In this document: positions 249 through 64,000 of the stretch, piece after piece
Layout: the number at the start of each line of letters is the position of its first letter
Position numbering within the stretch: position 1 is the first letter of the stretch
Origin: Candidatus Omnitrophus sp.
GTDB lineage: Bacteria; Omnitrophota; Gorgyraeia; Zapsychrales; Fredricksoniimonadaceae
Assembly (NCBI GenBank): GCA_020719005.1
Contig: DYQZ01000001.1
Span: 5,779 to 69,778 of the forward strand
DNA length: 64,000 nucleotides
Direction: 5' to 3'
Made by a program: the position numbers and the translations under genes
The notes under the pieces: generated by a model
What the model was told of the DNA's origin: nothing
Seen by the model: only the letters and a program-made list of their open reading frames with translations
Databases searched by the model: none

Positions 249-250
249 TT

Positions 251-5196: not shown

Positions 5197-5199
5197 GAT

Positions 5200-6673: not shown

Positions 6674-6677
6674 TACC

Positions 6678-7094
6678 ATGATATTTTATCGACGGGCATT
6701 CAGTATGATCGAAATAACGCTGGCGTTGTTGGTTATGACACTTTTTATCGGAGGGGTCGTATCAACAGGGCGCGCGGTGATCGAGGATGCGCGCCAGGAA
6801 AAAGTATGGCGGACGCTCAGCGCATTTCTTGAGATCAGCGCGCAGTTTGATGCTGTGAAAGGGAAATATCCTGTCTCGATCGAGGAGGTCGTTTCATTCG
6901 ACACACGCGTACCCTTTTTTAATCCGTGGGGCAATGCGTATGTCGTTGTGCCGTCAGCTGCGTCGTGGTGTATCGAAACACGCGTTCCGTCGGTCCGAGG
7001 GGATATCCACCAAAGCAGTATTTTCGCGAGCGTTCTTTCACAAAAGGACGGGGATGTTCTTCGCGTGTGCAGGCCCGTTGTCACAACACCATAA
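6678..7094 (+). CDS. Prepilin-type pseudopilin (minor pilin-like)
   Basis: Start chosen at ATG 6678. The ORF-track start 6636 overlaps the previous gene. The N-terminus MIFYRRAFSMIEITLALLVMTLFIGGVVS has an A|FSMIEI prepilin-like motif (Glu at +5) and a hydrophobic helix, on a small (~138 aa) beta-rich body. Confidence 0.6.
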   Translation: MIFYRRAFSMIEITLALLVMTLFIGGVVSTGRAVIEDARQEKVWRTLSAFLEISAQFDAVKGKYPVSIEEVVSFDTRVPFFNPWGNAYVVVPSAASWCIETRVPSVRGDIHQSSIFASVLSQKDGDVLRVCRPVVTTP

Positions 7095-7106
7095 AAGAAA
7101 GAGCGT

Positions 7107-8908: not shown

Positions 8909-9258
8909 TATCGACGGTAATAGCGTGTCACTTTGCATCATTAGCATGGTCGGGTGTATATGAATTAAGCCGTGTGGATTATTTTAATATATACGAAATT
9001 CGACGAGAGAAAAACGACACGGCTTCGCGGCAGGCATTCTCATCCGATGATCTGTGGGCGGTGGAAATGACCGATAGCGCCGGCCGTTCGTTTTTACAGC
9101 GTCCGCCGGAAGTTGTGATGGAACTGTTGAACGATCCCAATACTTTGAATGGATCGAAATATCTCGCATGGAACGAGGCGCGCATCAAACATTTGGAGCA
9201 GGCGGCGGCGTTGTTGGACGAAATATCAAAAGATCCGTCGAGGAGAACACAAAGGTGA
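8869..9258 (+). CDS. Hypothetical small secreted protein
   Basis: 129 aa with an N-terminal signal-like helix MDILAKKRVLSFLISTVIACHFASLAWSG. It overlaps the previous gene by 40 nt. No known motifs recognised. Confidence 0.4.
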   Translation: MDILAKKRVLSFLISTVIACHFASLAWSGVYELSRVDYFNIYEIRREKNDTASRQAFSSDDLWAVEMTDSAGRSFLQRPPEVVMELLNDPNTLNGSKYLAWNEARIKHLEQAAALLDEISKDPSRRTQR

Positions 9259-9262
9259 TGTG

Positions 9263-10974: not shown

Positions 10975-11002
10975 TTGCCACGCCTTGATAATATGCTATA
11001 CT
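10975..11002 (+). promoter_or_regulatory. Sigma70-like promoter for the giant gene: -35 TTGCCA (10975-10980), 16-nt spacer, -10 TATACT (10997-11002)
   Basis: Near-consensus hexamers with 16-bp spacing sit directly downstream of a very AT-rich stretch (10800-10970, UP-element-like). The predicted TSS is about 11009, giving a ~60-nt leader to ATG 11069. Confidence 0.4.
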
Positions 11003-11068
11003 CTTCATGTCGTCCTTGGTGGGACGATAGATATGTTTCATGAATAAACCCGTATCAAATGGGAAAAC

Positions 11069-14000
11069 ATGGACGAAAACCGCAAAGACCTCAACAAGAA
11101 CGACATTAGTCCCCTTTTTGGGGATGAGTCTTTGCGCGCGGTGTCTGAAACAAGTAATATTCCAGCAAAAACCCCCTCCACAACGCCCCTGACCCCGAAA
11201 AATGGGCATGCGGCTTTGGTCAATGAATTCAAAAATATGGTTCCCGACGGTGTTACGTCGAAGGATTCAGCTGAGACCTCAGTGCCTCCGGCAGGCGTTT
11301 TTGATGATGTGGACCCCGCTCTCGTAGGTGTGGGCATGGGTTCAGATGGTTTTGTGTTGGGTGCTGAGGATGCTATTGTCACACCCGAAGGTCCGTATTC
11401 CAGCCGTTTTAGCACGTGGATGCGCGTTGTTGCTTTTGCGATCGTTGCTATTTTTCTACCAGATCAGATCAGCTGGGCGTTTAATTATAATCCTGCCGTT
11501 CTTTACGGGAATCAGGTTTCAACGGTCATGGCCCCCATGCCCGGGATGGATCTTCTAACACCAAAACAACTTTCTTCCATGCAGGTTTCGGCCAGCGTTA
11601 CCGACCTCTTAAAACAAGTTTCTGAAAAGAGCGCGGATAAAGTAAGCATCAAACTTGATGATAATCAAGGACTTATGGGCCTGAATGGAAAAGAGCCCGC
11701 TATCCTTGAGATCAACAACGAAGCCAAAATGACCGCGCCCCAGATCGAACAGGTGCGTGCGTGGTTGAGCGATCCGAAGATCAATGCCCTCAATTGCGGT
11801 GTGTTCGCGCTGAAAGAAATATTGTCTGGTAATGGTATAGATAAAACCGTTACAGAACTTGCTGTTACGACGATCAGCACCGATTTGATGGCTAATATCA
11901 TCAAGCCTGGCGATAAAAAACTTAAAGTTACGCTTTATTCCATGACCGAAGTTGCTAAAGCCCTTGGTCTGAACGTCAAGGCCTTAAAAGTGGCACCGGC
12001 TGAAATGCTCGCCCTTCCCAAGCCGTTCGTGGCGCATCTTTCCGACGAGCACTTTATTACAGTTTTAAAGACAGATGGCAATGATGTTGTAGTGAGCGAT
12101 ATGGGCGAAACGCTCCATATGGCGCGCGACGATCTGGCCGCGAAAGCCAGTGGTTTTGTCCTTTCCCGCGTTGATGCCAACATCCTTCCTTCCTATAAAG
12201 AGGTTTCTTCATCCGCCCAGGCTTTCGTGTGGGGCGACCGTTGGAAGCGTCAAAAGCTTCCGGGGCTTGAATCTGCAGGGTCACAGCTGAGAAAATATGC
12301 GATCGACATGACGATCAAACTCGTCACGGCGATCATCGCTTTCTTTTGTGGTCCGGCGGGTTGGATCTCCTGGATCGTTGCTCAGATCGCCGATGCGCTT
12401 ACTAGGATATGTGTTGTGGCGGGTGCTTGTACGGCAAAACAGGCGTTTATCATTAATACAGCAATAGCTGTGGCGACGATCATCTGTACGCTTGGGGCAA
12501 GTTCTTTAAATACAGCAGGACAACAAACCGCAGCACAAGCTGGCGCACAAGCTTTCAAGGGGGCTCTTACAACCGCGTTAGGAACTGTTGTAGGGACTGT
12601 TGTATATGCGGCAATCGGCCTTGCTATTGGTGTAGGCGCGGCGCATTTATTATGGAAAGTCAATCAAAAGATAGACGCAAAATATGGTTCTAGTTCACCG
12701 ATCGCAATGACGTTGAAGGCGGTTGCGTCCGCGGTTGTGACGGGTGCATGTACAACCGGTCTGTTTAGCTGGGGGAACGCTATTAAAGATGGTCTGAAGA
12801 GCATGGCCAGCGGAGTGGGTACAGAAGCGGCAAAACAAGGCGCACAACAAACGGCTGCGGATTTTGCTGTAGCGATGTTTGTTAAGCTTCCGAAGTCGGT
12901 ATTAGATGGTATTGGTATAACCTCAAGTAGTGATGCCTTTAGGAGATTTTTATATACACAAGGCGGTTCTTTGGCTGTACGCATGGCATTTAAAAATAGC
13001 AAGGATACGGCATTGGTTGATGCGTTGGCCACTCTTGGTGGAGCGGCAGCTGGACTGGCGGGGTCTTATATTGAACATGGAGCTACGACTGGAGACTGGG
13101 CGGGTGTTCCAACGTCTCTTGGAGAAGAAATAGAGCCCGTTGATCCTACAACTGTTAATACGATGGCGGAAGCCACTACATCCGACGCGCCCAGGTCAGC
13201 TGTAGGTCAGTGGATCGACACAAAGATCCATAATACGGGTTGGACAGGGGCGATCGTTAGAACGATGGGCAGAGCAACTCTCGAGGCGAGCGTTTCATTT
13301 ACTATGGGCAGGATGGAAAAGAGCGTTGTTGGCGAAGATGATGGTTCGGCCGCTTATCAACAAAAACTTTTGGGGTATCGTTCGTTGAGTTTTGGTATTG
13401 CTGGAATGATCACAGGGGTTTATATAGGAGTACGTTCGGCGTTGGATTCCAATGGAACCGGCATGGTATCTTCTTTCTTTAAGGGTTTTGGGGGTGGCAT
13501 GGTAACTGGCGCTATGGATAGTCTTACCAAAGCGTATGGTAAGCAGGATTTTGATACGATCATGAGTAATGCTCCTAAGCAGGGCGGGATAGGCGGGGAT
13601 GTCGAATATAACATGGCTTTGGTAAATGCGGCTCAAGGCATGTCTAATAATACAGGTATGACCTATGAATATTTCAGCAGTTGGGATGCGCAATGGAAGA
13701 CGATGAAAGAAGAGAACGCCAAGTCTGACAATCCGGTGAGTCAAAAAGAATTGCGCAAGGAATATCAAAAAGCTTTTGGTCGAGATATTCAAAGCACCCC
13801 CGGCATCACAGGGATGAACGGTATTTTAAAGACAGCTAATATTGATATGCGTGTCAAAGCTGTTGAGAGCGGTGTGAGTTGGGCTATGACCCGCGGGCTT
13901 ACTTCAGGCTCTCTTGAGCATCAGCAAGCCAAACGTGCGGTGGTCAAGCTTGGATTGACCTATCGTGGAAAAGAATTATTTGCTGGATCTGATCGACAGT

Positions 14001-20000: not shown

Positions 20001-23000
20001 ATTTTCAGAATTCTTTTAATACGGTGAAGGCCGCTAAGACAGCGAAGGATGTGTTTGCGGCAGTGAAAACGGTAAATGGCGGTAAAATGATGTCAACGGC
20101 CCTTTATACAGCCAGAGCCGCTACTTCGGTTGTTGGCCGTATGGCGATCAATGCTGCTGCTGGCGGCACCGTGAACATGGGAGTTCGGGCATTTGATTAT
20201 GCGATGACCAATCCTGATAAGGGTTTTTCGGGTTATTTTTCAAATGGGACTGTGTTACGTGATATTGGTATAGGCGCCTTGACAGCAGGGGTGCTAAGCG
20301 GCGCGAAGATGGGTGTGGGTAGTCTTTTTACTAAAACAGCAATGCCTTCTTTAGGTATTATCAGTTTCGGAACAGTAGGCGCGACAGGTTATGCCGCAGA
20401 TAGATATTTGAGTGGTAAAGAAATGACCTGGCAGGGAGCTGTGGGAAGTTTTGTTGGCGGTATGGCACTTGGCCGTTTTGCGATGTCAGCAGATAAATAT
20501 ACAAAGCGTGTTTTATTAGGGGAAGAAGGAGCCGCGCAAAACGCAACAAGTGCCATGCGGGTAAAAGTGGCAGAAGGAAAAGGAAATTGGCGCGAACGCA
20601 TGGTTGCTAAGACCAGTGATGCGTATAAGAATACTTTTAATACTGGTCTAAAACAATTTGCTGTTAAGTCTACTGTTGGTGCGGGGTTAGGTCTTGGTGT
20701 CTCTTATATGGATAGTAGCAGGAAATATACAGCCTGGGAGAGAGCTGAATTTGCATTGATGGGTGCTACTGCTTTCGCCATGACGGGCCTTTCGATGAGA
20801 GGGAGTGTTTCTGCTTGGTCGCGTCAGGGGCTTAATGGCCGTGCGGTAGGATTGGTCGATTTTGGAAAGAATCCGTTCTTATTTTCAAGATTAAGTGCTG
20901 CGGGCGCTCTGGATTTTGCAATAACGATGCCCCTTTTTGGTGTTATTGAAACGCCGATCCGTGCGGCTATGTATTATGCATTGAGTGAACGTAGTTGGGA
21001 GAAGTCTAAACAAGATGCTTTTGATCGTTTTAAAGGAGAAGCAAATAATCCGTTGGGTATTTTAACGCAAGGCATGGTAAATGGTGCTGAGATGGGTCTT
21101 AAATTAGGCCCAACGTTGGCGGTCTTTCAGGTTACAACAAAATCATTGGCGCTTTCTCGGGCGAAAGTTGGAAGAGGTTCCATAGCGACAAGTATGTTGA
21201 AATTTGATAGAGCCGTTATTAATGGGCTTTCTCATAAAGTAACACACATGATGCCCTCTACGATCGCATGGCTTACGGGCGTAGAGCTTGGAACAGAGTC
21301 GCTCGTGGCTTCGATGAATAAAGAAGGTTCCATAGTCTATAATGCAGGTTTTAGGAATGGCATTGATATTAAAGCCGCCGAAGCTGTGCGTGTGGCTAAA
21401 GCCAATGGGCAAGATCTTTCTTTGGAAGAGGCTCGCGCCCAACAAATTCAGACGATTGCTGGTGAAGTGGCTTTTGTCAGTTTGATCTTTAAGCCATCAC
21501 CTACACATGCCTCTGACCTTGATATTGCCAAAGAAGCTGTTAATAAAGCGCAAAGAAAACATGGTCCCACTTCTCCACAGTATAAAGACGCGGTCGCAAA
21601 ACGTGATCTTTTATTGGCACAGGTTAATCAAAACAAGAAGTTAACGGCAACAGAGCTGTATGAAGAACAAAGTAAACTTACTGAAGCCGCTGAGGCCGCC
21701 GCTAAGGAAAAAGGTGCTCAGCCGTCTAATGCGCCGTCAACGTCCAAGGGTGGTTTTATTAGCACTTCAAGCGTCACGTTTAGGGAAGCCGGCAAGAATA
21801 TTAGCGAGGCTTTTCGCAATTCTCGCCTTGCTCGTGCGGGTGATAATATTTATATAGTGCGCACGATCAAAGATCGTCTTTCACCTAACAGATTAGACAC
21901 CTCCATTGCCGCACTAGAAGCGCGTGAATATGCGGCGTATAGGGCGATGGGCAAGCAGGTGCTTTCAGCTAAACAGCCCGGTCAGACTTTTTCCGGAGCG
22001 CGTTACATTCTTGAAGGCGCTCGAGCGGCAGTCGAAACGCGTCAAAAGAATCAAAAACCGGGAATAGAGGCAGATCAGGCTCGAGTGAAGGATCTTCAAT
22101 TATTGAGCAAGATTGCGAGTGATCTGGCAGGTAGAATGGCTGAAAGTAAAGGTCTTGTTGATGCGGCAGGCAAAAAAACGTTTGAGGCAGATAAGAAGGC
22201 TATTGAAAGCCAGAGCATAGCTTTTGAAAGAGAGTTAAAAGCAGTTGAGGGTCAGCTTTTTGAAAGAAGATCTCTGGAGGCGAGGTTAGAGGCGCTTACA
22301 CAAAAACAGCAGAAGAATCCCACAGATGCTACGACGCAGATTGAAATCGCCAAGGTTCAAAACAAGATCGATCAACTTAATTTAATAACCATTAAAGATG
22401 TCAATTTACAGGCGCGTAAGGCGCAGATGTATGATGCTCTTGAAGCTAAGATCGTGAAGGCGAAGACTGCGGCTCAGGAAAAGATAGACGGAGGAAAGAC
22501 TGTTAATCCTCAGGATGCAGCTCAGATCGCTAGGTTGGAAAAAAGGCAAGAAAAATATCTTGAGGCAAAGAGCCGCGATCTAATGGGGGATTTGGCATCG
22601 GGAGAGCTCTTCAGAAGCTTGGATGTTTCGGGATTAAAGAATGCCGAACTGTCAAAACTGCTTGCCGCACAACGGCAATATGATCAAGTAGTGACTTTTC
22701 TGAAAGAAAACGCGATCAATTTTGGTTCTAAACAGGCATTGGCTTATGCAAAACAGATGCGTGAAACTGTTGTTGATGTTTATGGCGAAACATCTTCGGC
22801 TAAACAAATTGGTGCGATGGGTCAGAATCTCAATAAATTAACGACTATCTTGAAGGTTGCGGGTGTATCTGACACAGGGGTGAAGAAATTTGCTGTTGAA
22901 AACAGCATTATCCTAAGAAGCGAAGTTGTGAAGCATCAGCTTTCATCGATTGAAGGTTTTCAGCAGGGTGACAAAGCCCTTTCTAGTAGTCAAAAAAGAT

Positions 23001-50000: not shown

Positions 50001-53000
50001 TGCGGGCACTGCAGGAGAAGAATATTCCGCATGGCCGTATCCGATTGTTCTTTACCGCAGAAGAAGAAACTTTTGAACATCGGGGTGCACTTGATATTAA
50101 GACCCAGCACCCAGATCTTTTAAGAGATATTGCTTTGATGATACCTGTCGACGGGCATCGTTTGCAGAAGAATGGCCGATATGAAGATATTTTAAGCGGG
50201 GATGCTGGTTCTTTGGCGGTCATGTTCATTAATCTTGTAGATGGGGCTTTGGAGCGGTTGGTCGTGCTTGACGCCGGGCGCGCGCTTGGTATTGAGCCGG
50301 CAGTCTTTAAACTTAAGGCGAATGCCAGCGGTAATGAAACTATTTGGGGAGCGGCTGGAATGGCTGTGGCACATGTTCGTGCTAATTATGCGACGACAAA
50401 TGACAGGGCTAGTGTTGATCATGCGGATTATGCGGATATTTTGAGTTTAGGTGATTGGCTGGTTGAGATCGCTCGTCGAGGAGTAGAAATGTCAGAAGCC
50501 CAGTTTCTTAACGTCCCCGTCGTTACCCTCAAAGAAGAAACCCGCGTTGCGTTAGATGAGATGCGTGCGGATCATTTGAATAAGACCAAGAACACAACGC
50601 CTGCCCGGTATCGTGCGCTTTCTTCCATTGTTACGACGAGCATTGCCCGTGAACTTAGGAAGCACGCAGATCCTGCCAAGACCGTGATCGTTTTCCCGTG
50701 GCGTTCGGCCATGGCCATGAGCGAAGCGTTTGAGCGTGAAGGGTATCGTTACTTTTGGCACATCGGTGTCAAGCGCGATGAGAAGACGCTTGAGCCGTCG
50801 ATGTATTATAAGGGCAACTGGCGTATGCCGGAGGGTGTTGATGTGGCGGACCTTGAGGTTGTGATCGCGGACCCGATGTTTGCCATCGGCGGAAGTGTTG
50901 CCCTCACGATCGATATCTTGATGAAAGAAGAAGGCATCAAGCCTTCGCAGATCACGGGCGTGCATGTCGTCTCTGTCCCGGAAGGTATCAAGAACATCAC
51001 CGCGAAATATGCGATCAAGCGGATCATCACCGGGTCGCTGGATGAGAAGTTAAATGAGATCGGTTATATCGTTCCTGGCCTCGGTGATTATGGCGACCGT
51101 TATTTTGAAGGCATCAGCTGTGAAGAGGTCCGTCATTGGAGGAATCTGGACATTCTTGACGGGAATGATCTGAAGGCGCTTGAAGGGAAGATATTTGGGG
51201 CTGAGGCAGGGGACGATGTTGTGAAGGCATATAACGGCATTCTCACCCCTGATGAGATCGCGGCTCTTGCGGCGTATAAATCTAATACTGTAAAAGTAGA
51301 ACAGAAGGTGCTCGCCCCGGCGCTGGCCATGATCGACGGTCTGGTTTTTGAATTACCAGAGGCGCGGTGCCTGGATCTTGGTGTGCTCACGCGCAATCTT
51401 GAGGTTTGTTTAATTTCAATGCAGGGAAGGGCTCCTCCGAGTGCCACTATTGAGGACGGCATTCTTTATCTATTTTCATATGAGGATAATAAAATAACGC
51501 CAACGCTTCTGGCGCGCATGATGGTTCATGAAGTTGTTGAGGATCAAGCCCATCGCAGTATTTCAGGAATTTCTAACGAGAGCGCCCATTCTTTGGCCAT
51601 CGATGCCGAGAGATCCTTTTCCGATCTTTTTAATTCCCACGAGGTCTTTGTTGCGGATTATGACGGGACATTGCATAACTTTCAGCAAGGGGTCCCGGGG
51701 AAGGTGCGTCAGGCGCTCATCCATAATGTGCTGAGTTCTGGCCGTCGGCTGGTTATCGCGACTGGGCAGGCCCCGGACACGTTTTATACAAATATTTTTC
51801 CTCAGCTTGATCTTGCCGGGGCTATGCGTTATGACGGTCAGGTCTATATTCTAGGTGAGGTCGGCGGTTGTGCTCGGCTTTTACGTTCTGATAGAACGCT
51901 TGTTGATGATCCGGATCTTTCTTATGCGCCGATGAGTGAGGATTTTCGCTCCGAGGTCGCTCGTCAACTTGCGGGTATTCGCGCTGATCCGGCGATCGGT
52001 CTTTCTGATTGGGAGGTGGGGGTTGTTCAGCGCCATTCCATGATCTCGTTGCAGATACATTCTGAAGCGGCACACCGTAAAGCGCAGATGATCACGGAGC
52101 GTCTGCAGGCGGCTCTTGCAAGCTCGGGTTTTTATGTGACTAATGTGGTGGGTTGGTTCATCGATATTTCTTCAGCCAGCAAGGGCATTGGTGTTAAGCG
52201 ATACCTTACGAAATTCGGGCTTTCCCTTGAGGATACGCTCGTGGCTGGCGATAGCGGTAATGATATTTCCATGCTTGCCTTGGCAAAGGAAGGGGCCCAG
52301 GCGGTTTTTGTCGGATACGACGGGGCGATCTTGCCGTTGGATATCCGTGATAAGCTTGCGTATGTTCCGACGCCTGAAGCATTGGCTGATGTTATTTCTT
52401 CCAGATTTGTTCAAAAAGAGAGTGCCCCCGCTTTGTCGTTGTCTGGTTTTTGTGGCAACTGTACCGAGGCGATCAAGAAGGCATTGCCAGGGCTGGTCAT
52501 GGCCGGTAAGGTTGAGGTTCGGCGCTGTGCAGCGCTCGGCCTGCTTGATCTTGATGGGGACAAGGTTGATTTTCTTGAATTTGATTACAATGAGATCCCT
52601 GAAGCCATCCGTTTCAATGAACTCAGCAATATGCAGGAAGTTGCGATCTTTGCGGCTGAATATTCCAAGCCAGGGCATTTTTCGATCCATGTTTCTTCTG
52701 AAGCCCGCCGTCGATTTGATGCGCTTTTTCCCGTGGAAGATCCTGAGGCACGTAAGACCGCTCTTAAAGTGATCGCGCTTCATGAAAAAGTTGAGCTCGA
52801 CGGGATGAGCCATGCCAATGCCGTAGAATTCCAGAAGACGGTTGAGGGCTATAAGGTAGTTGCCGAACGCCTGGAGCGTTTGCAGTCGCTGGAGCGTGTG
52901 ATCATCCCGCTTGCGCATAACAGTGTTGATGTCTCTAATATCAAAGCCAGGATCGTGTTCGCGGAACGTCACAGTTTGACAGAAGAACAGCGTCAGATCC

Positions 53001-56000
53001 TTTTTGGTCTGCGTAATCTTGAGCTTATTGCCGCTGCGGTCCGTAAGATCGACAGTCATGTCAAGCGCGGGCGTTTTTCCTGGTTTTTTTCGGCAAAGCC
53101 TGTGTGTGCGGCTGAGGTGATCGAGGCTGTTGTGGAACGCCTCATCGCCGAGCGTTCCCGTTTGTCTGCTACCGTAGGGATCCTTGAATTGTTCGATGCG
53201 GTCATTACGGATGAGGAAAAGGCTATTCTTCAGGAGTGGGGCATTAATCCCGCCGGAGAAGTTGTCAAGGTTCCTCAAGGGCAGGGCACGATTTATGATC
53301 TCATCAATAAACATTTGGATGATAATGACCTGCTCTCGTATGCACCGATGATCGGTGATATGTCCGATATGATCGAGAAGAAGAAAGAACGTTTTAAAGG
53401 TGTTCCAGGACGCGCCGGCGCTTTTTATAGGGTTTTGACACCATTCTTGCGCAATATGGCCAAGCATGACCCAAGCCGTGTCGATCAGTACAAAATGTTG
53501 AGCGAGGGATTTTTGGAGAAGGTTATTAGTGAAGATGCCTTGCCGATGGTCAAGTGGTGTGAGGCGGGTGTCTTGGATGTCATTGCCACGTTCCGTACCA
53601 AGATCCAGACGGGAGAGGCGCGGATCGCTGATATGCGCACCAAGCTTTTGGAGCCTGATGCGGACCGTATACAATTGGAAAGAAGTATTTTGATGGTCCA
53701 GCAGAATACCGTCGGTCTTTTCATGGAACTTACGCAGATCTATGAGGATATCCTTTGGGAACTTGTTCTGGATTATCCCTATCAATTGGATTCTACACGC
53801 CGGATGTTGCGCGAGAATATCGTTCTGGCGCAAGTTTCCAGGATGGCGGATACACTTGCCGCTTTAAGCGCGCGCCAGGTTGAGGCGGATGAAGAGCCGC
53901 TGATCGCTCTTGAAGTAGAGCAGGCCCGTATTTTTACGTGCATTGCCATAGAGGCTATTGAACAGTTGAAAAAAGACGGCAGTCAGGATCTAAGCTACCG
54001 CAGAATGTTGGAACAGTCGGTGGATGCGGCGATGGAAGAGTTCAGGGCGCGTCTTCTGACACGTTTTGTTCCTTTGTATCGCGCACAAGATGCAGGGATG
54101 ACCATTGAACAGGCTGAAGAGAAAGTGTTGCGCGAGGCCCGTAATTATTACGATCATTTGACTGATTATATCATCGAAGAATCTGAAAAAGGGCTGGGGA
54201 CCACGGACCCTCACGGACTTCAGGCGGCACTTTTATATCATGATGTTCCTACTCCCATCAAATTCATGCGGACTGTAAGCGGTGCGCTTAAGGGGCGTCT
54301 TAAAGTGGTGCTGAATACACGCGGCTCGACGAACAATCATTATGCGCTGGCGGCCAAGGCTAACAAGATCCCTGTTCTGATCCTGGACCCTTCACGCCCC
54401 GATGACTTGAAAGATCTTCGGCGGTATCAGGAAGTGTTGATCCAGGACCACAGGGTTTATATTAATCCAAGCGCAAAGACACGCGATCGGGCAGATGGTG
54501 AGGAGCGTCGTCGTGCGGTTTATCAGGAATATTGCCGGTTTTGGGCAGCGCGTTCTTCGGTCGGCGCTGCGGCTAACGCGGATGATGCACAAGCGATCAC
54601 GGATGCTTTCAAGGAATTCATGGCGCGCAATATCGGCCTGGTGCGCAGTGAGAATTTGTTCCATGGTATTTTACCGGTCTCGATCACTGAGGCGATGATC
54701 GCGGAAGGAATACCGCAAGGCACGAAGATCTTTGATATCGGGGCGATGATCGAGACGCCGGGTGCCGTGGTAGATCTGGATAATATTCTTTCGCTGGCCG
54801 CATTCGTTAGTATTGGTTCGAATGATCTTACGGCAAAGACCTACCGTATCGATCGTGCGAGCGTTGAGCAGGGGGCGCGTGTTTATGGGCGTGTGATGCC
54901 TTTGGTGTTAAGGAAGATCCGGACGGTCATTGAAAAAGCGAATGCCGCTGGCGTTGACGTTTCGATCTGCGGCGACCTTGCGGCCATGAGGCGTTTTTGG
55001 ATCGTGTGGGCGTATTTGCGTCATCAAGGCGTGCGTGTGCATTTAAGCATGCCGGCGCACGAGATCCCCGAGTTCAAGGCGAGGATCAAGGCGTTGGAAA
55101 TATACCAGGGTTCTCATGCTGTCGTTGGGGCATGGGATATGATCGATAAGATATTTGCTCTTCCCGAGGATGAAGTTGCCGCGGATGACGAAGCGTTAGC
55201 CGTTCTTTTGGATAAAAAGCTTTTGCGGCTCGATCAGATCATCAGGAAGCGTCTTCGGATCGGGTCACTTCAGGATACAAAAGGTCCTTGCACCGCGGCC
55301 GATAGTCATAATGGAAAACTTTATTCCTCATTTCTTCCTTTGATCGTCCTGACGATAACGCTTCAGGCCGGTATTATGTGGCTTGCTGTTGGTTTAGGTG
55401 CATTTGTGTTCTGGAAGGTCTATAAGAATTTTCTGCGTTCCCGGGCCGGGCTTGGACAGCCTGCGGCTCTTCGGCCTTGGCTTATGGGCATGCTCAAGGT
55501 GGCGGCGCGTTTATCGGAAAGGATCTTTTGGCCTTATAGTTCAGCTTTCAAGCGGGCAACTTCTTTTGATCTTTGGACAGTTGCAGGAACGATCAGGCGC
55601 AAAGAGGTGCGAACACTGTTGTTCCAGGTCGCGGGCATGATACGCCGTGATCGTGAAGTTTATCTGGCTTCAAAAGCTGCGGCTGTTCATTTGCCGTCTT
55701 GTTTTGGCGTTTATTTGGCACGTATTTTTGCAGGTGTTATCCCTATTGCGGTTTATCGTAAGGTTGATTCTTCCAGTCCCTCTAATGGTGCTGATATAAC
55801 CTGGCTTAGCAAAAAAGGGTTATTGGATAAGAATGGTTTTATGGAGGAGTTTGTTGATCCGCGCGGAAAGTTATCCTGGGGTATGGCCGGCTTTTATGCG
55901 GATATCATCGAGATCTATTTGTTGAATACGCATGATCATACCCGGATGGTGGCAGAGATGGTGCGTTCTTATCTGGATCATCAAAAGTCTGTTTCTCATA

Positions 56001-59000
56001 AAGAATTCTGGCAGTTGATCGGCCGCTCCTCGTCACAGCAGATGGCACAATACCGCCAGGATGTTGAAGCCATGATCCACAACAGTCGCTTGAATAAGGT
56101 TGGGCCTGTTGCTTTTCACCAGAAGATAAAGCAGTTTCTTCTTATCCGCTTTGAAACAAAGGGTTTTGTCATTGAGAATGAGCTTATCGGATGGCTCTAC
56201 CGGACGTCGCAGGATAAAGGCTTCGAGTCTTTGGCTGATGAACTGGTGCGTTTGCTCGACGTTGCGCGCAATGTGGGTTATGCGATGGAACATCATGTTC
56301 GCGCGGGGTTGAAAATGTCAGGATTGAACGAATTGATGCCGCGTCATATTGTGTTTGCTTATGAGCCTCGTCAGGGAAAGGGTGCGGCTGTTTTAAACAG
56401 CACCTACAGGCTTAATTATTTCAGGTATTCCCTTCACGGGTTGGAGCAGGCAGAGCTTTTGGAAATGCTTTTGTATGATATTTATTTTCATATCATTTAC
56501 GCGGATCAGATGTTGGTCGGATCCTGTGCTTATCAGGCGTCCCGCCCTGGTGCCAGTAACATGCTCGAGGATGAACATTTTTGCACGGCGGCGTATCCGG
56601 TGGAAACTCTTGAGGGAGTGGATCTGGTCCGTCTTCAGGACCGTTTGGCCAAAGTGATGGCTGAACATATAGCGGCCCGGCTGGCGTTTGGCAAGGATGT
56701 TCAGATCGCGGGTGCACGTAGCAGGATATTCATGACGATCAGTAAGCTCAAGAACGGCGCTTTGCTTAAGGATCTGGCACTTGAAATGGCATCTCGTTAC
56801 GCTGTGGTGCAGACGGAAGGATATAACACTATTTTGGCGTCGGAGATCGCACAACTTAACGTATTTCTGACAACAAAGGCTGTGTATAGTGATGACGCCT
56901 TGGATGTTGAGGCTTATATTGCATTGCATGTGCAGAAGATGGCGGAATTCTTTCAGAAGGTGGAGTTCAAGAAAGATGTTCGTGTGAAGCTCGTGCATAA
57001 AAAGTTCTTTCTGGCCAGAGGCGGGCATGATGAGCGGTCGCTGGGAGAAATGAACATGGAAGGCCAGATCACGATCCCGGTGAAGTATTTCATGACCACG
57101 CGCGGCTATAAAGAGGTTCTGGCCCGTACTGCGGCCATGCTCAGCATGTATCGTTTCCGTCATAAAGTGAATGATCAGCAGACCGTTATTCATGATATGG
57201 CCAGGCAGATGATGCTGTCTTCCGATATCAGGGAACTTTTAACATTGATGTTCACGCTTAATGGCAGCCGCATGCCAGAGGCTCGTGCTCAGGCTCTTTT
57301 GGATGGATTTGATGAGGTAGAGGCGCGGGGGGCTTATGATATTGTGACGTTGGAGGATGAGCTGTCCCGTCATCTTAACGAGCTTGGGTATCAATATATT
57401 GCGATAGGTAAGGATGAAAAAGGTTTCCGGATGTCTTTTCTTTCTCCAGCGGCTATCGGAAAGATGATCCAGCAAGCGTGGGAAGCGTCCCGGAAAAATC
57501 CTCATGCGGAAGTTTTTCCTTCCACGGGTTTTGCCATTCGTCCTACTGTTGGCGGGCGGGCGATATTCCGAACATTCGATCCCGTATCTCCCGAGAACTT
57601 TGTGCACTATCATTTGCGCGGATTTATTCAGGCTGGAGAAGGCGCGGATCAGCATACGATCGTGATGCAGGGGTATGAACCGCGCAATCCCGATCTTTTC
57701 ATGAAATATCACGGATGGTTCGGGATCTACACGACGTCGGATCTGATGGGATTTCTGCGCAATGATATGATCCTGACAGCCCGTCGCTTTATGCTGTGCG
57801 GTGTGTTTTCCGGGCACACCAGGGTTGTGATCCAATATATTGATCAGCACGGCAACAAACAGCAGGAGATCGTCAGCCTCGTCACGCTCGCGCGCGAGGT
57901 TATTTACCGCCGGCATGATGTGCCCAGGCGCAATCATCCTGATTATGTGCCACAGTCGCACATCCTCGCTACCGGCGAAACACTTTCCTGGTATAACTAT
58001 TTTCTGATGAAGAAAAGATTGGGGCGGCGTCTTTCAAAGAAGGAACAAAGGTATGTTCAGCTTTTTGAACGCATGACCCCTGATGATAAAAGGGATTCTT
58101 TGCTCACGAAGATCTGCCATGATTTTCAGGTCATTGACGAAAAGACCTTGCTGGCTATACCGGTCATGGGGAGAAAAGATCTTCGGCTAGGGGATATTAA
58201 TATCCGTTGGAGAGTTATTTTCCGCCAGTTCATTAAGAAATGGGCACACCGTCATGTTTTTGTTTTATTTACGGTTGAACGCCCTTCTTCTTTGTTAAGC
58301 AGTATACAGGCATTCTCCGGCCTGCCAGGATCAGATGCAACAATGCCCGAACTGCCTCCGTCGATCCGGCCTCGTGATGAAAAAGAACATTCCAGATTTA
58401 ACGAGTCTTTCAAGTCTTTGGCACGCATCCTTTCTCCTACAAAGGTCATGTGGATCATGCCCATGTATAACGAGACATGCCGTCTTTTACCAAGAACAAA
58501 GACCAATCATCCTGGTGAAGATGCTTTGCGTGTTAAGGTGCAGGAGATGTTGGTGGCGCAGAAGATCAATCCTTTATTACAACAGCGCCTCTTGGCCGTT
58601 GATGACGGCACACCGGAATTGACATCGGCAGCGACGGTAAAAGATCTTTGGGAGAAGATCCGCGAGGAATATTGCAAGGAAGGTATAGAGCTTGACCCTG
58701 ACATGGTCCAGGTCATCGATGTTTCCCCCGAAGAAAAGAAAGAGATGGGAAGTAAGAAAGGCTGGGCAGTCCTTAAAGCCATGGCTTTTGCCGCGAAGGA
58801 CGGCTGGGCGGATATGATCGGTTTTACGGATACGGATATTTCAACGAATTTGATCCAGGCTCCGCTTCTTGTCGAGAAGCTCCAGCAGGGCGCGGGCGCC
58901 GCGATCGGGTCGCGTTGGATGCGCGGGGGAGAAGTTCGGGATATTTCGATCAAGCGGATGCTTTCGAGCAAAGGCTTCCTTTATTTGGTCACCTTGATCC

Positions 59001-62000
59001 TGCTTCCGCTCTTTGGCATTCATGATACGCAGCGCGGCTTTAAATTGTGGCGCAAAGAGATGATCCCGCTTTTTATCAAGTATGCCACCGAACACGGACT
59101 TGCGTTTGATACGGAACTCTTGTTACTTACACGGATGACGGGGAAGAAGATCATAGAAGTGCCGATCGCTTGGTTTGATTCTGCGGAAGCTAGCACGGTC
59201 GCGCTCGGCGTGGAATGGAAGGTCATGTTGCTTGCGGTCATCAAACAGGCGCGTCATTGGCTTAATCCTTTGATGTGGATGAAAGTTCGCTCTGCGATGA
59301 AGGACTCGGCGCGGTCGGTGCCGGATGAGAAGAAGGCATCAGCTTGGGCAGTGGGTCTTGAGATATTGCGTGTGGTCGGGATCTTCGGCTGGAAAATAAA
59401 GAGATTGAGGGTTGAGCACAATGTTACGCTCGCCGTGAATTTCCTGCGGTCGATCGGAGAAGAGGCGCGTGCGAAGGTGATCGAAGAAATGGCGCGTACC
59501 GGGCGTGTGCGGGCAGGTCCGTTCAAAGGGTTTTTGGCAACAACGTATCGCTGTTTGAATGGTAGTGAATATATCCTTCTTTCTGATCTTCCTTTATATG
59601 CCAAGCGTGGCTGGTTAAGTGCATGTGAAATGAATGCGAGTGTTGTGCACGAGAGCGGTGCGCTTTCAGCGTTCAGGCTTTCCCATGAAGATAATGTTAT
59701 TTTTGAGTCATGGTTCCGTCGGGCTTTTAATGTTGCCGCGTTGAAGCCTGTTGAGATCATAGATAATTTTACCGAGACACTGATCGAGCATCAGAGCGCT
59801 TTTGGGACAGGCGTTGTTGATCTGCGTCAGGTGCCGGAGAAAGTGGATGTTATTGTTGTCGGCGATCTGCATGGCCGCATTGATACGCTCGAGTCTATTT
59901 TAGGTCATCGGATCAAACGCGTGGTTGCTTTTCAGAAAGAATTGGAAGAGTCTGTTCTTGAGAGGGTCAGCTATGGACAGGCAGTTCTGCTCTTTTTAGG
60001 GGACGCGGTCCATGCAAGCCCACAGCGTGAGCAGGTGAGCAGGGCCGTTGAACAGGCCGCTTTTCAAAAAGGCAGAACGCTTACGGCATCTGAAAAAGAA
60101 GCCATCATCGCACCGTATTTCATCAATGCCGAAGCTTCTTTCAAGACGATGCAAAGGATCATGACACTTAAGATCATGTATCCGCGGCATGTGTATTATC
60201 TCTTGGGGAATCACGATCTCCTGGATTATCCCTGGGAAAAATTCACCGATGGTGTTGAAATTGATCAGACGAAGAATTATGTAGAGTATTTGCGAAGCGT
60301 TATCGGGGACGCGGGGGTTGAGAAATATAAAGAAGCCATGCGTTTGAGCCCGGTCCTTTTCTTGGGCAGGAATATCGTGGCGGCTCATGCCGGTCCAGTG
60401 AAAGGCCCTTGTTCGCTCGATGAGATCGGTCGGATCAATACGGCCTCGCTCGTCGATACCCGCATGCGGGACCTGTTGTTCAGCCGTTATTACAGGTTGT
60501 CATTAGTTGAGAGCAAAGATTACATGTATGACGAGTCTGATGTTGACGGCTTCTTGCGTGCTATTGGTTATGATCCGAAGATGACATCGTTCATTGTTGG
60601 CGATGCCCCGTTCGCAGGGAGCGCGTTCTATCATCAGGTTTTCTTGAATCATTATGTTGTTGCCGCAGCCAAGCGTGAGGCCGGGTATGCACTTTCCCGT
60701 GGGGGGCGTCTGGAGTTTGTGGTAGTTGAAGAATCTTCTTCTTTCAGGGTGTCCTCCTTTTTGCCCGTGTCTGTTGCAGCAGTGGCGGCATTCTCTCCTC
60801 GGGATATTCATGTACATGATCTGGTGGGTTGGGGTGGGATGCTTGTTGGTACCATGCTCGCGCTATTCTTATTGCGTAGAACAGATCGCCGGGAAGCTGC
60901 GAAAGAGGATCTGCCGAGAGATGGTTTTCGTACTGTTGATGAAGCGGCGTGGTATGCCATGGAGAGCATTAGCGGATCAACCCTTCCAGGATCCAAGGAC
61001 AGCGTTGAATGGGCGGGATGGATATACAAGAACGATGAGGGGACATATGCTTATACGTCCGCCCAGAAAGCAGGTAGAACGGGAGGCATTCTTGAGGGCA
61101 AGCCTAAGAACACAATGGCAGTGTATCATTCGCATTGTGCTTCCGGTCTTTACAGCGAATTCTTTTCTGATATGCAGACAGACCCTGTTACAGGAGAGCG
61201 CTTAGGGGATAAAGATAGCGCGCGTGCGCATCGCATTGATTGTTATGTTGTTACTCCGTCGGGAACAAAAAGGAAATACGAACATTTAGGGGAAGATGTT
61301 TTCGTTCTTTCCAATAAAGGCAAGAGCCAAACAAAAGACATGTTCGCCCGTCTGGATGAGTGGGGTATTGCTGATCCATGGATCGGTTTCTTGATGTCAC
61401 CTCAGGTGTGGATGAGGATGTTCGTCCGCCGGTGGTTGATCATACAGCCGGTCACAGGGGATCAGCATGGCGCTGCGACATCCATACCCCGGCAGATGCT
61501 GTTGGACAAGACAATACAATATAACGAGCGTGACCTGGAGATCTCTTGGAAGGCCAGAGAAGCGTTGATAGGGAAGACCGATCTGCATTGGAAAGATCCG
61601 GTCGTCTTAAGCAAGTCTGCCGCGACGGACGCGCTGATCGATCAGCTTGTTGAGAAGATAAGAGGGCATGAATTTGATGAAGGGGTCCCGTTGGCAGAGA
61701 TCGTTAAGACAAAGGGCAGGATCTTGTGTGAGTCGTTTGAATTCGTGCTGAGGGAGATATTAAAGAACGCTTTTGATGCGTATGCCATGACTGATCTGAA
61801 GTCTGAGACCGTGAAGGGGCCGGTGAGGGTGCGGATCTTTAGGCAGGGAGCTGACCTTGTCGTTGAAGTATCAGATAACGGCGTCGGGTTCGTTGAGGGC
61901 GTGGTCAAGGCAAAGATCTCAGGCAAGATCATTTTTGGCGGTAGAGGCATAGGCCTTTTGCGTTCGAGGATCCTTTGCCAGGTGCGCGGCGGGGATGTAA

Positions 62001-64000: not shown

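Follow-up and report, generated by a model that had tools for sequence, protein, structure and literature searches.

A 53-kb open reading frame beside pilus and secretion genes is probably the start of a gene for a very large, membrane-threaded Omnitrophota-type protein with many domains

A frame that stays open for some 53 kb and then runs off the available DNA raises the question of whether it can be a single genuine gene and, if so, what kind of protein it encodes. The window, i.e. the whole 64,000-nt stretch of DNA analysed here, originates from a biofilm in a sulfidic cave. The + strand frame following the TAA at 11045-11047 contains zero stops across 11048-64000 (52,953 nt, 17,651 codons), while the runner-up open stretch on this strand is 1,626 nt long. 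From base composition about 998 stops would be predicted in this frame (log10 P of zero = -446) and the remaining two + frames hold 849 and 1,621 stops. Reassignment of a stop codon is unnecessary to account for the open frame because the upstream genes terminate with TGA and TAA. A coding signature (GC1>GC2, purine-rich first position) is present in each 3-kb bin of the large ORF with a constant codon-position bias, and Pfam domains occur in frame from codon 294 to codon 17,200. The zero stops, uniform codon bias and in-frame domains bear out the original prediction of a single coding ORF no shorter than 17,644 codons. As had also been proposed, the gene ends beyond the window, the frame still being open at position 64000.

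11069..64000, + strand: large ORF, 17,644 codons from the first ATG to the window end, no stop, 3′ end past the window
10975..11002, + strand: candidate sigma-70-like promoter, TTGCCA-16-TATACT with an extended -10 TG (consensus match only)

The promoter candidate is located 67 nt 5′ of the ATG at 11069, inside a 588-nt intergenic gap. Long ORFs on the minus strand (29255-31123, 52172-53833 and others) had been interpreted as antisense shadows; they all lie in a single stop-poor antisense frame (363 stops versus 618 and 980) and yielded zero Pfam matches, in agreement with that interpretation. The large ORF is indeed missing from the ORF track, but it had not been masked as was suspected: the lister by design skips ORFs that run off the source. 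This is a general pitfall, as ORF listers that drop contig-overrunning ORFs or limit ORF length hide such genes.

In the family-defining head of the large protein, an acidic tail and a single membrane anchor precede a C39 cysteine peptidase domain with Cys, His and Asp.

11426..11482, + strand: membrane anchor helix, aa 127-145, in the conserved motif W-x-R-x-V-A...PDQISWAFNYNP (hydropathy; invariant alignment residues; modelled long helix)
11735..12169, + strand: C39 papain-like cysteine-peptidase domain (Pfam PF03412, E=1.1e-7)

The C39 catalytic residues, numbered from position 11048, are Cys250 (11795-11797), His335 (12050-12052) and then Asp351, and all three are invariant in an alignment of eight sequences. 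An AF2 model of the region (pLDDT 71) retrieved the peptidase domains of PCAT1, ComA and LahT with Foldseek, with E-values down to 8e-6 and a target-normalised TM-score of 0.70. The large-ORF domain shares with the C39 domains of these PCAT ABC transporters (PDB 4ry2, 3k8u, 6mpz) the papain-like fold and an equivalent placing of the catalytic Cys and His, whereas sequence identity is only 15-20% and it is not joined to an ABC transporter: no ABC transmembrane or nucleotide-binding domain was found after it in Pfam and NCBIfam searches. Because no ABC domains follow, we rejected a PCAT identity (an ABC-exporter N-terminal domain cleaving double-glycine leaders), and the domain is predicted to act as a C39 peptidase without being a PCAT. 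Given the single membrane anchor ahead of it, the domain should be separated by the membrane from the N-terminal tail.

In public data the head family comprises 842 cluster representatives at E<=1e-3 and at least 195 at E<=1e-30, and the match is nearly always N-terminal. Among metagenome relatives of the head, 61 of 66 carry the NCG motif. The ORF runs off the available DNA at 77 of 80 head-related metagenome loci, and 29 are open for at least 10.8 kb downstream. Anchor and C39 together (motifs SWAFNYNP and LNCG) make a compact N-terminal marker that retrieves hundreds of such genes from fragmented metagenomes.

The body of the protein is non-repetitive and nearly unique in sequence, with roughly 11,700 aa almost without recognisable domains followed by a string of enzyme modules. 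About 27 hydrophobic segments in several clusters (~1 per 650 aa) split it into large soluble blocks; these TM-like segments come from a crude hydropathy scan (Kyte-Doolittle 19-residue mean >1.6), so the topology is approximate.

12296..12643, + strand: first hydrophobic cluster, four TM-like segments, aa 417-532 (hydropathy)
12845..19657, + strand: ~2,270-aa block rich in N/G/T/S/D, no TM segment (composition)
20345..21547, + strand: G/A/S/T-rich amphipathic module, aa 3100-3500 (tblastn)
24185..25237, + strand: P-loop NTPase-like module (motifs read from sequence)
36227..36700, + strand: NAGPA phosphodiester glycosidase domain (Pfam PF09992, E=5e-14)
41783..42988, + strand: second hydrophobic cluster, aa 10246-10647 (hydropathy)
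44345..45847, + strand: conserved polytopic membrane module, ~7 TM segments (one homologue, 45% identical over 79% of the query)
55319..55747, + strand: third hydrophobic cluster, aa 14758-14900 (hydropathy)

The N/G/T/S/D-rich block had no Pfam, NCBIfam or PDB match and is presumed to be extracytoplasmic and adhesin-like. The amphipathic module, with tblastn matches in 6 of the 80 related loci (25-31% identity), is the sole non-head part common to other head-bearing ORFs. The P-loop module contains a Walker A motif GLGGGKTT (aa 4393-4400), a Walker B motif VADEVH (4511-4516) and GYTGTL (4714-4719), with a Walker A / DEVH / GYTGT spacing that we take to be roughly as in E. coli SecA. It had no match among PDB sequences and a weak, sub-threshold Pfam match to TraG-D_C (E=0.017), and SecA_DEAD gave no Pfam match in the visible ORF even at E<=5; going by its motifs, the module could be SecA-like or coupling-protein-like. 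Hydrophobic segments at aa 8276-8294 and 8596-8614 (hydropathy) flank the NAGPA domain. The polytopic module carries the motifs HAFYGPGIVRW, NIEDTG, RPREMI, FQNRFGGLV and PLHDEK, and its AF2 model (pLDDT 34.5) provided no usable fold.

The last ~6,000 visible residues form a chain of recognisable enzyme domains.

46166..47914, + strand: tandem duplication, aa 11707-11997 and 12001-12289, 70% identical (self-BLAST)
48020..48211, + strand: 2H phosphoesterase domain (Pfam PF08975, E=1.6e-7)
48905..49282, + strand: NUDIX / IPP-isomerase-like domain (Pfam PF00293; NCBIfam IPP isomerase, E=2e-12)
49643..50170, + strand: M20/M28-type metallopeptidase domain (Pfam PF04389; PDB tripeptidase / peptidase T; NCBIfam)
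50630..51109, + strand: uracil phosphoribosyltransferase (UPRTase) domain (Pfam PF14681, E=3e-28; PDB UPRTases, E=1e-21)
51641..52315, + strand: HAD-IIB (Cof-type) phosphatase domain (Pfam PF08282; NCBIfam TIGR00099)
54683..55114, + strand: PEP-binding domain of PEP-utilising enzymes, cf. PTS enzyme I, PEP synthase, PPDK (Pfam PF02896, E=3e-24; PDB)
58778..59176, + strand: GT2 glycosyltransferase-like segment, dolichol-phosphate-mannose synthase match (PDB 5mlz, E=3.8e-7)
59849..60487, + strand: calcineurin-like metallophosphoesterase domain, GNHD at aa 16387 (Pfam PF00149; motif)
60995..61282, + strand: DUF4329 domain (Pfam PF14220, E=8.5e-8)
61742..62056, + strand: HATPase_c (GHKL ATPase) domain (Pfam PF02518, E=4e-7)
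62159..62647, + strand: polyprenyl-phosphate phosphoglycosyl transferase (PGT; Bac_transf) with a re-entrant membrane helix (Pfam PF02397, E=5e-29; PDB WbaP, PglC)

Thirteen distinct Pfam families match the large ORF at or above the curated cut-offs, none of them a dominant repeat; sub-cut-off matches to Peptidase_M42, DUF1611 and Collagen_bind fall outside this number. Both copies of the duplication are guanylate-kinase-like P-loop domains with GPPGGGKG (Pfam PF00625; PDB guanylate-kinase matches), a P-loop without Ser/Thr that looks degenerate, and the Nudix box (NETEED) is likewise incomplete or degenerate. In the UPRTase domain the PRPP-binding motif IADPMFAIGGS is intact and GYIVPGLGDYGDRYF is present as the C-terminal motif, while the Asp-Glu dyad (LDEWPQ) and the GPRP motif of the PGT are intact. 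Judged by these residues, at least two modules, UPRTase and PGT, retain their catalytic motifs. A metagenome scan with the last 451 aa of the visible ORF returned no match.

Two well-known classes of very large bacterial proteins could be discarded. A repeat-built giant adhesin (titin/SwmB/RTX/Bap-like, TSP3/dockerin) was rejected given that TRF found 0 tandem arrays in the large ORF, self-BLAST of the 17,651 aa found only two internal paired segments, and dockerin and TSP3 matches were lacking. An NRPS/PKS megasynthase was rejected as no condensation, adenylation, carrier or ketosynthase modules are among the Pfam/NCBIfam matches.

Five of the six named homologues come from Omnitrophica/Omnitrophota MAGs, one head homologue being labelled Elusimicrobia, and the closest body homologues are all Omnitrophota proteins. 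There are no phylogenetic marker genes within the window; for this reason we infer the phylum solely from the labels on distant homologues (30-49% identity). The homologue of aa 12290-13700 belongs to another fragmented giant gene (L155), where it sits close to the 3′ end; two PilZ genes come after this giant gene. A further homologue forms the C-terminus of a huge gene whose neighbour, in an Omnitrophota MAG, encodes at least 17,736 aa.

The original prediction had described proteins of this size as extremely rare, which is outdated: thousands of Omnitrophota proteins of at least 10,000 aa are catalogued, the longest of 147,155 aa, with N-terminal C39 domains and secretion-gene neighbours (West-Roberts et al. 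2023; Nielsen & Lui 2026). The large ORF is therefore a new example of a kind known in this phylum since 2023. With 'large' defined as >10,000 aa and 'giant' as at least 30,000 aa (West-Roberts 2023, bioRxiv 10.1101/2023.11.21.568195), the visible part (17,644 codons) qualifies as 'large' and by itself stays below the 'giant' threshold, the ORF running on past the window.

The first group to compare is Archaeovorin, with the Velamenicoccus archaeovorus LiM giant protein as type sequence (West-Roberts et al. 2023, bioRxiv 10.1101/2023.11.21.568195). Features reported in the literature include a TM density of ~1 per 370-800 aa, domains of the NUDIX and PPDK-like types, and >10 secretion genes, gspD/E/F among them, clustered ahead of the large gene. 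Small PilZ genes and solute-binding or GH genes are expected downstream of genes of the Archaeovorin type or class 1. The large ORF resembles Archaeovorin in being a single ORF of tens of kb with C39 near the N-terminus, scattered TM helices and mostly unannotatable sequence, in its NUDIX/IDI-like, peptidase, glycosyltransferase and pyruvate-phosphate-dikinase-type domains, in the preceding >10-gene secretion/pilus cluster with secretin, GspE and GspF, and in having its closest homologues in Omnitrophota MAGs. These literature features and the Omnitrophota homologues agree with the likeness to many-TM giant genes of Omnitrophota-like uncultivated bacteria that had been pointed out beforehand. 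In contrast, HEAT, TPR, methyltransferase and glycoside-hydrolase domains, all typical of Archaeovorin, were not found in the visible ORF, nor was an HMM-detectable SecA_DEAD; a divergent SecA_DEAD / preprotein-binding domain is reported in most, not all, giant Omnitrophota proteins. UPRTase, two guanylate-kinase-like domains, 2H phosphoesterase and PGT are unmentioned in West-Roberts 2023.

The second group consists of the class 1 'multi-enzyme metabolic cluster' long proteins of Gorgyraeia, e.g. KR0015B_u4168876_114 of 147,155 aa (Nielsen & Lui 2026, bioRxiv 10.64898/2026.06.07.730766). Singletons make up 80% of the clusters in that catalogue, the architecture with PF03412 (C39) ranks among its two largest architecture clusters, and T2SS/T4P genes flank 13 of the 14 largest long proteins. 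As in class 1, many Pfam families tile the polypeptide with none dominant, there is HATPase_c, HAD, NUDIX and kinase/phosphotransferase content, the TM density is similar and the sequence mostly unique. However, class 1 proteins are from deep groundwater or the Baltic and not from a sulfidic cave biofilm, and the visible ORF has only one internal duplication and no sugar-metabolism modules (starch synthase, PGM, GT1).

Taken as a whole, 11069-64000 is likely the 5′ 53 kb of one genuine gene for a very large membrane-threaded multi-domain protein of the Omnitrophota kind (Archaeovorin / class 1). The polypeptide would be inserted co-translationally into the inner membrane, weaving across it, and blocks with enzymes needing cytoplasmic substrates would face the cytoplasm; the UPRTase would draw on PRPP, the kinase-like domains on ATP and the PGT on nucleotide-sugars and polyprenyl-phosphate, and PEP would be a further such substrate. 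The outward-facing parts would be the NAGPA glycosidase and the N/G/T/S-rich block (aa 600-2870), both of which might make contact with a partner cell or with its envelope. The C39 head could trim the large protein or a partner, or serve as a chaperone or dock, and the adjoining pilus/secretion machine would supply attachment or export. The large protein would thus be a membrane scaffold uniting nucleotide-salvage and glycan/envelope-building chemistry where a host-dependent bacterium touches another cell. We infer that it is not primarily a cell-wall-degrading enzyme.

The frame might also be real and yet not specify one mega-protein. West-Roberts et al. 2023 raise the possibility of a polyprotein, in which case the ORF would be the equivalent of an operon without stop codons and the mature products many separate enzymes and surface proteins, released by the N-terminal C39, the internal M20/M28 peptidase or host proteases. 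This would fit with a conserved C39 that appears catalytically competent from its residues and heads the entire family, and with discrete enzyme modules separated by long linkers. C39 peptidases of the PCAT family cut after double-glycine leaders, but no double-glycine leader substrate or repeated cleavage motif of this type was identified in the large ORF. Moreover, TM segments occur along the full length, which suggests that released pieces would remain membrane-bound anyway. We consider processing into separate products unlikely.

What distinguishes the locus from those described above is an unusual neighbouring cluster that joins F-type T4SS and type IV pilus genes, a mix not discussed in the West-Roberts 2023 or Nielsen & Lui 2026 surveys. 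It occupies 251..10480 on the + strand, co-oriented with the large ORF.

251-2381, + strand: three proteins without assigned function
2378-3982, + strand: GspE/PilB ATPase
3955-5196, + strand: GspF/PilC platform
5200-6252, + strand: YhcG nuclease
6194-6673 and 6636-7094, + strand: two prepilins
7107-8027, + strand: prepilin-phage-tail-collar domain fusion
8009-8908, + strand: TraU
8869-9258 and 9263-10480, + strand: two proteins without assigned function

On the sister contig CDCMTA010000093.1, genes for TrbI/VirB10, TraV, TraC/VirB4 (full length, 28% identical to plasmid/ICE TraC) and a secretin directly precede the window start. VirB4/TraC, VirB10/TrbI, TraV and TraU beside a secretin, a PilB-like ATPase, a PilC-like platform and prepilins, one of which has a variable adhesin-like C-terminal domain, resemble a conjugative T4SS with an accessory type IV pilus. 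Such a combination is the thin-pilus arrangement of IncI plasmids. The cluster differs in showing no relaxase, coupling protein or origin-of-transfer functions within the available DNA, in having <30% identity to plasmid proteins, and in being followed by a gene of more than 53 kb and not by transfer genes. It also differs from the Archaeovorin neighbourhood, where Tad/RcpC/rotamase genes are found in place of TraC, TraU, TraV, VirB10 and GspE/F-type genes.

The large gene could accordingly be suspected of being the cargo of a mobile element (conjugative plasmid/ICE) in a non-Omnitrophota host, with the F-type T4SS and a type IV 'mating' pilus as the transfer apparatus; the host could belong to another phylum of the cave biofilm, e.g. 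Elusimicrobiota or another PVC relative, and the single Elusimicrobia label among the head homologues would suit this idea. Besides the Tra and pilus genes directly upstream, it could explain the selfish-looking YhcG nuclease within the cluster, the nonsense polymorphism in TraU between assemblies, and the finding that 0 of the 80 head-related loci have the T2SS/Tra genes of the window, another conserved upstream set (Tad-like) being present at 36 of 38 loci. Mobile-DNA-rich flanks of giant genes have been noted by Nielsen & Lui 2026. On the other hand, the 16.8 kb upstream contain no relaxase, coupling protein, integrase or replication gene, base and codon composition are alike in the upstream genes and the large ORF, and all the closest body homologues are from Omnitrophota, where secretion clusters with T2SS and T4SS homology are the usual reported neighbours of giant genes. 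A mobile cargo in a foreign host thus seems distinctly unlikely.

A bolder idea, which we regard as a long shot, is that the large protein is the working partner of an undescribed hybrid apparatus with an F-type T4SS core (VirB4/TraC, VirB10, TraV, TraU) and a type IV pilus made of the secretin, PilB/PilC, prepilins and a tail-fibre-tipped pilin. Such an apparatus would have no separate coupling protein, a role that the P-loop module of the giant ORF (aa ~4390-4730) could fill given its faint TraG/TraD-like signature, and the entire locus might be mobile. If true, the machine would dock on or thread a membrane-anchored mega-protein toward a host cell, and its enzymes of nucleotide salvage (UPRTase, kinase-like, NUDIX, 2H) and of glycan chemistry (PGT, GT2, NAGPA) would sit at a cell-cell bridge drawing on host metabolites.

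Other assemblies bear on the integrity of the locus. On the NCBI contig CDCMTA010000093.1 a gene is called from the same ATG that is uninterrupted for 13,758 aa (41.3 kb) and runs off the contig; 3 of the 18,027 overlapping bases differ from the window, 0 of them within the 6,959 nt of the large gene compared. Logan SRR404114 shows 100% identity to window 5344-11952, and the SRR1559353 contigs are identical over window 5371-8550, with 2 of 4,669 bases differing in another comparison. That the 53-kb frame is an artefact, whether pieced together from several loci or mis-assembled at a repeat, is hardly credible: GC3 shifts along the ORF (0.34 to 0.57) could hint at joined pieces and the base-by-base check against the second assembly covers only its first 6,959 nt (to window 18,027), but random joins would not leave a frame of 17,651 codons free of the ~1,000 stops expected in it, mis-joins have neither tandem nor dispersed repeats to drive them, the gene in the independent NCBI assembly spans the main GC3 shifts, and the homologous ORFs at 77 of 80 loci are likewise open to the end of the available DNA.

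To our knowledge, no function of such giant genes has been demonstrated experimentally. Genes of this size probe the limits of transcription, translation, membrane insertion and gene calling, and the large ORF adds a sequence-unique member from a sulfidic cave biofilm. Its clean, non-repetitive domain map points to cytoplasm-facing nucleotide-salvage and glycan-building functions, in preference to the cell-wall degradation proposed for the class.

The + strand of the window is free of stop codons from 11048, directly after a TAA at 11045-11047, to the window end, which corresponds to 52,953 nt or 17,651 codons; the runner-up open stretch on this strand measures 1,626 nt. The first ATG of this frame (hereafter the large ORF, with residues counted from 11048) lies at 11069 and leaves exactly 17,644 codons, so that the original prediction of at least this many codons, without a stop up to 64000, holds in every detail. 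It had also been assumed that the ORF was masked or omitted from the ORF track. It is indeed missing there, but the lister simply leaves out ORFs that run off their source. The long minus-strand ORFs were rightly taken for antisense shadows, since all of them fall in a single stop-poor antisense frame (363 stops vs 618 and 980) and a Pfam search with them gave no match.

The large ORF contains no tandem repeats and only two internal duplicated pairs in 17,651 residues, and repeat-driven mis-assembly is therefore not an issue. Compared with the window over 18,027 overlapping bases, the sister contig from a second, independent assembly (CDCMTA010000093.1, 58,106 bp, GCA_974335155.1) shows 3 differences, all of them outside the 6,959 nt of the large gene that it overlaps. 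Its gene call of 13,758 aa starts at the same ATG and runs off the contig end. Across window positions 5344-11952 a contig from SRR404114 (Logan) matches at 100% identity; Logan contigs from SRR1559353 are identical across 5371-8550 and show 2 differences in 4,669 bases. GC3 along the large ORF is lowest at 17-20 kb (0.34) and highest at 41-47 kb (0.57). This drift suggests a gene pieced together from parts with different histories, a mosaic and not a chimera, since the 41-kb gene call of the second assembly spans the main shifts. The upstream genes terminate with TGA and TAA whereas the large ORF is without any of the three stops, and stop-codon reassignment is therefore not involved. An open frame arising by chance in non-coding DNA is ruled out by the stop statistics (about 998 stops expected from base composition, log10 P(none) of about -446, with 849 and 1,621 stops in the other two + frames), by a codon-position signature equal to that of the upstream genes in every 3-kb bin (GC1>GC2, first-position purine 58-73%) and by in-frame domains above Pfam's own cut-offs from residue 294 to residue 17,200, with which PDB and NCBIfam searches agree.

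We are dealing, very likely, with a real single gene of the family described as Archaeovorin (West-Roberts 2023, bioRxiv 10.1101/2023.11.21.568195) or as class 1, the 'multi-enzyme metabolic cluster' (Nielsen & Lui 2026, bioRxiv 10.64898/2026.06.07.730766). It exceeds 10,000 aa and combines an N-terminal C39 domain, many TM segments, mixed non-repetitive enzyme content and an upstream secretion cluster. Further hallmarks of the family are a length of at least 30,000 aa, PilZ genes downstream, a SecA_DEAD domain and an Omnitrophota host; no hallmark with a clear outcome spoke against membership. All credible genes of the window run in the + direction, and GC skew is strong and positive throughout, with values of 0.08-0.30 in the 2-kb bins. 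The 588-nt gap ahead of the large ORF contains a promoter-like site, 67 nt 5′ of the ATG. Rfam and tRNA scans of the 64-kb window returned no features.

Features of the large ORF (all on the + strand; nucleotide positions are those of the window)
aa 1-540, +: head, an acidic, probably disordered tail followed by anchor, C39 domain and four hydrophobic segments
aa 127-145, +: single membrane anchor within the conserved motif PDQISWAFNYNP
aa ~230-374, +: C39 cysteine-peptidase domain with Cys250, His335 and Asp351
aa 417-532, +: cluster of four hydrophobic segments, end of the head
aa 600-2870, +: N-, G-, T-, S- and D-rich block without TM segments or known domains
aa 2870-3500, +: G/A/S/T-rich amphipathic module, similar to head-bearing ORFs at 6 of 80 loci
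aa 3500-4500, +: helical, highly charged region, by composition
24185-25237 (aa ~4380-4730), +: P-loop module with GLGGGKTT, VADEVH and GYTGTL
aa 8394-8551, +: NAGPA phosphodiester glycosidase, flanked by two hydrophobic segments
aa 10246-10647, +: hydrophobic cluster
44345-45847 (aa 11100-11600), +: strongly conserved polytopic membrane module with HAFYGPGIVRW, NIEDTG, RPREMI, FQNRFGGLV, PLHDEK and FFYVFPV
aa 11359-11591, +: hydrophobic cluster in the conserved polytopic module
46166-47914, +: tandem duplication, a pair of neighbouring copies of ~290 aa (70% identity), each with a guanylate-kinase-like domain; the only sizeable internal duplication

Besides the anchor motif, FVWGD and LPGL are conserved in the head. 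An AF2 model of the head region (mean pLDDT 71) retrieved the peptidase domains of PCAT1, ComA and LahT150 in Foldseek, at E-values as low as 8e-6 and with 0.70 as target-normalised TM-score. The large ORF is nevertheless not a PCAT, being without an ABC transporter. The anchor is flanked by Arg residues on its N-side and by Asp on its C-side, which suggests, from sequence, an extracytoplasmic position for both the C39 domain and the N/G/T/S-rich block. The same location is usual for glycosidases of the NAGPA type.

The head marks out a large family whose ORFs are very long. Among 1.84 billion proteins its profile matched 842 cluster representatives at E<=1e-3, of which 195 reached E<=1e-30, nearly always at the protein N-terminus and in proteins of up to 7,820 aa, a length bounded by contig ends. 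A metagenome scan with the head yielded 80 loci (the head-bearing loci) at 30-43% identity. The ORF stays open to the end of the available sequence in 77 of these, 29 of which have at least 10.8 kb open downstream. Of the 66 loci chosen via another, independent motif, 61 carry the catalytic motif NCG. Beyond about residue 500 the head-bearing ORFs show no detectable similarity to the large ORF, the amphipathic module being the sole exception; such divergence agrees with the finding that 80% of long-protein clusters are singletons (Nielsen & Lui 2026). Where long upstream sequence was available (38 loci), the 10 kb 5′ of the head contain a conserved set of genes co-oriented with the big ORF: two TadB/C-like T2SSF-domain proteins (36/38), a ~1,040-aa protein together with several ~100-aa proteins (35/38) and a ~410-aa protein (28/38). 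This set is wholly different from the genes upstream of the large ORF, homologues of which were found at none of the 80 loci.

The large ORF is preceded on the + strand by genes for three unknown proteins, a GspE/PilB ATPase, a GspF/PilC platform protein, a YhcG PDDEXK nuclease, three prepilins, TraU and two further unknown proteins. On the sister contig, TrbI/VirB10, TraV, TraC/VirB4, a small unknown protein (147 aa) and a secretin are encoded immediately 5′ of the window, so that the upstream cluster extends from 5.8 kb 5′ of window position 1 (L001 1-6012) through window 1-10480. TraU is intact in the window (8009-8908, 299 aa), where TAT at 8498-8500 corresponds to TAA in CDCMTA010000093.1, a nonsense polymorphism between otherwise near-identical assemblies that shortens the protein to 158 aa. 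One prepilin with an N-terminal methylation motif (7107-8027, +) is fused to phage tail-collar and Gp10_C (T4 Gp10 C-terminal-like) domains, and this tail-fibre-like tip may possibly represent the receptor-binding end of the pilus. The YhcG/DUF1016 gene (5200-6252) is placed within the pilus operon, after the gene for the platform protein and before those for the prepilins, and looks like a selfish or defence-type insertion; one of the three differences between the assemblies, Phe to Ser at 5708, falls in this gene. As a whole, the cluster agrees with published descriptions of a secretion system that has more than 10 subunits, gspD/E/F among them, and shows homology to types II and IV; it represents a variant different from that of the other head-bearing loci. 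F-type Tra proteins find no mention in the two surveys (West-Roberts 2023; Nielsen & Lui 2026), and the neighbourhood of an F-type T4SS and a type IV pilus constitutes a noteworthy hybrid.

On the first ~9,700 aa of the large ORF, PDB, Pfam and NCBIfam searches recovered the C39 and NAGPA domains only. The motifs of the P-loop module are spaced by ~115 and ~200 residues, roughly like Walker A, DEVD and GMTGTA in E. coli SecA. Its sole HMM match is a sub-threshold one to Pfam TraG-D_C (E=0.017); neither a SecA HMM match nor a match in a PDB sequence search was obtained, and a search for SecA-like domain motifs across all retrieved loci found nothing. The polytopic module has a single homologue, 45% identical, among 5.8 billion proteins and belongs to no known family. 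AF2 modelling of aa 11050-11650 from the resulting 2-sequence alignment gave no usable fold (pLDDT 34.5), and the guess of a processive glycan-synthase-like fold was dropped.

A chain of enzyme modules, assigned by Pfam, PDB and NCBIfam matches and by self-BLAST, occupies aa 11700-17200. The guanylate-kinase-like tandem is followed by a 2H phosphoesterase, a NUDIX/IPP-isomerase-like domain, an M20/M28 peptidase, a UPRTase, an HAD-IIB phosphatase, a PEP-utilising domain, a third TM cluster, a GT2-like domain, a metallophosphoesterase, DUF4329, HATPase_c and a polyprenyl-phosphate phosphoglycosyl transferase (PGT). The guanylate-kinase-like P-loop (GPPGGGKG, without the usual Ser/Thr) and the Nudix box (NETEED) are atypical. 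In the UPRTase, the PRPP loop (IADPMFAIGGS) is retained together with the motif GYIVPGLGDYGDRYF, and in the PGT the re-entrant helix, the Asp-Glu dyad and the motif GPRP are preserved. Judged by these residues, at least two enzyme domains, the UPRTase and the PGT, have intact catalytic motifs.

With aa 12290-13700 as query, five proteins of 41-49% identity were found, and all three that are named come from Candidatus Omnitrophica/Omnitrophota. One of the relatives, P0017, is encoded close to the 3′ end of a giant gene fragmented by frameshifts, after which come two PilZ genes; downstream PilZ genes are a signature reported for Omnitrophota giant genes. Another (P0019) is the C-terminus (1,292 aa) of a huge gene opening contig JBAZIF010000002.1. 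On this contig (1-13875) of the Omnitrophota MAG GCA_041651975.1, another gene, encoding at least 17,736 aa, begins 240 nt after that C-terminus, and two very large genes are thus arranged in tandem. Among the named head homologues, two of three are from Omnitrophica and one from Elusimicrobia. The window holds no phylogenetic marker gene. Searching GTDB genomes with the GspE ATPase encoded upstream gave 69 loci from many phyla (27-43% identity), none of them syntenic or with a long ORF, a result uninformative for taxonomy. Among metagenomes, the final 451 aa encoded in the window found no relatives. SRR1559353 is a metagenome from the Frasassi sulfidic cave, one of the cave systems with sulfur-oxidizing biofilms, and is listed in a Thiovulum genome paper. 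Thiovulum genomes are far more A+T-rich than the window, whose G+C content is 48%, and as the named body homologues are all from Omnitrophota this host was set aside. An assignment of the source to Omnitrophota is likely.

How might such a protein work? UPRTase requires PRPP, the kinase-like and GHKL domains require ATP and the PEP domain PEP, while monotopic PGTs act on the cytoplasmic face with nucleotide-sugars and polyprenyl phosphate. Since these substrates are cytoplasmic, the blocks at aa ~11,600-14,750 and ~16,600-17,650 would face the cytoplasm. The polypeptide would be inserted co-translationally, weaving across the inner membrane, with its adhesin-like and glycosidase parts directed outward and the enzymes of nucleotide salvage and glycan priming held at the inner face. 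The protein could operate where a host-dependent cell makes contact, beside the pilus/secretion machine. Taken together, these steps, from topology to working at a contact site, form a tentative proposal of low confidence.

For the large ORF we favour the reading as a membrane-anchored multi-enzyme scaffold (Nielsen & Lui 2026) over the published hypothesis for the class, prey adhesion with cell-wall digestion, because its sequence is compatible with adhesion but almost no lytic domains were found. The possibility that the C39 head cuts the giant protein into pieces has been raised by West-Roberts 2023. It seems highly improbable that the large ORF is a functional partner or substrate of the hybrid machine made of F-type T4SS and type IV pilus parts, perhaps within a mobile element. 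The TraC of the upstream cluster is homologous to plasmid/ICE TraC over its full length, at 28% identity. No relaxase or coupling protein was seen in the upstream cluster (5.8 kb 5′ of the window plus window 1-10480). Readings as a repeat-scaffold adhesin or as an NRPS/PKS were rejected, there being no repeats and no such modules.

Since 2023, and chiefly since a catalogue of 2026 listed 5,761 proteins with at least 10,000 aa (Nielsen & Lui 2026), a C39-headed ORF of at least 17.6 kaa beside pilus genes should not surprise the specialist. Worth noting are the P-loop module, the intact UPRTase and PGT modules and the compact head motif, which offers a handle for searches.
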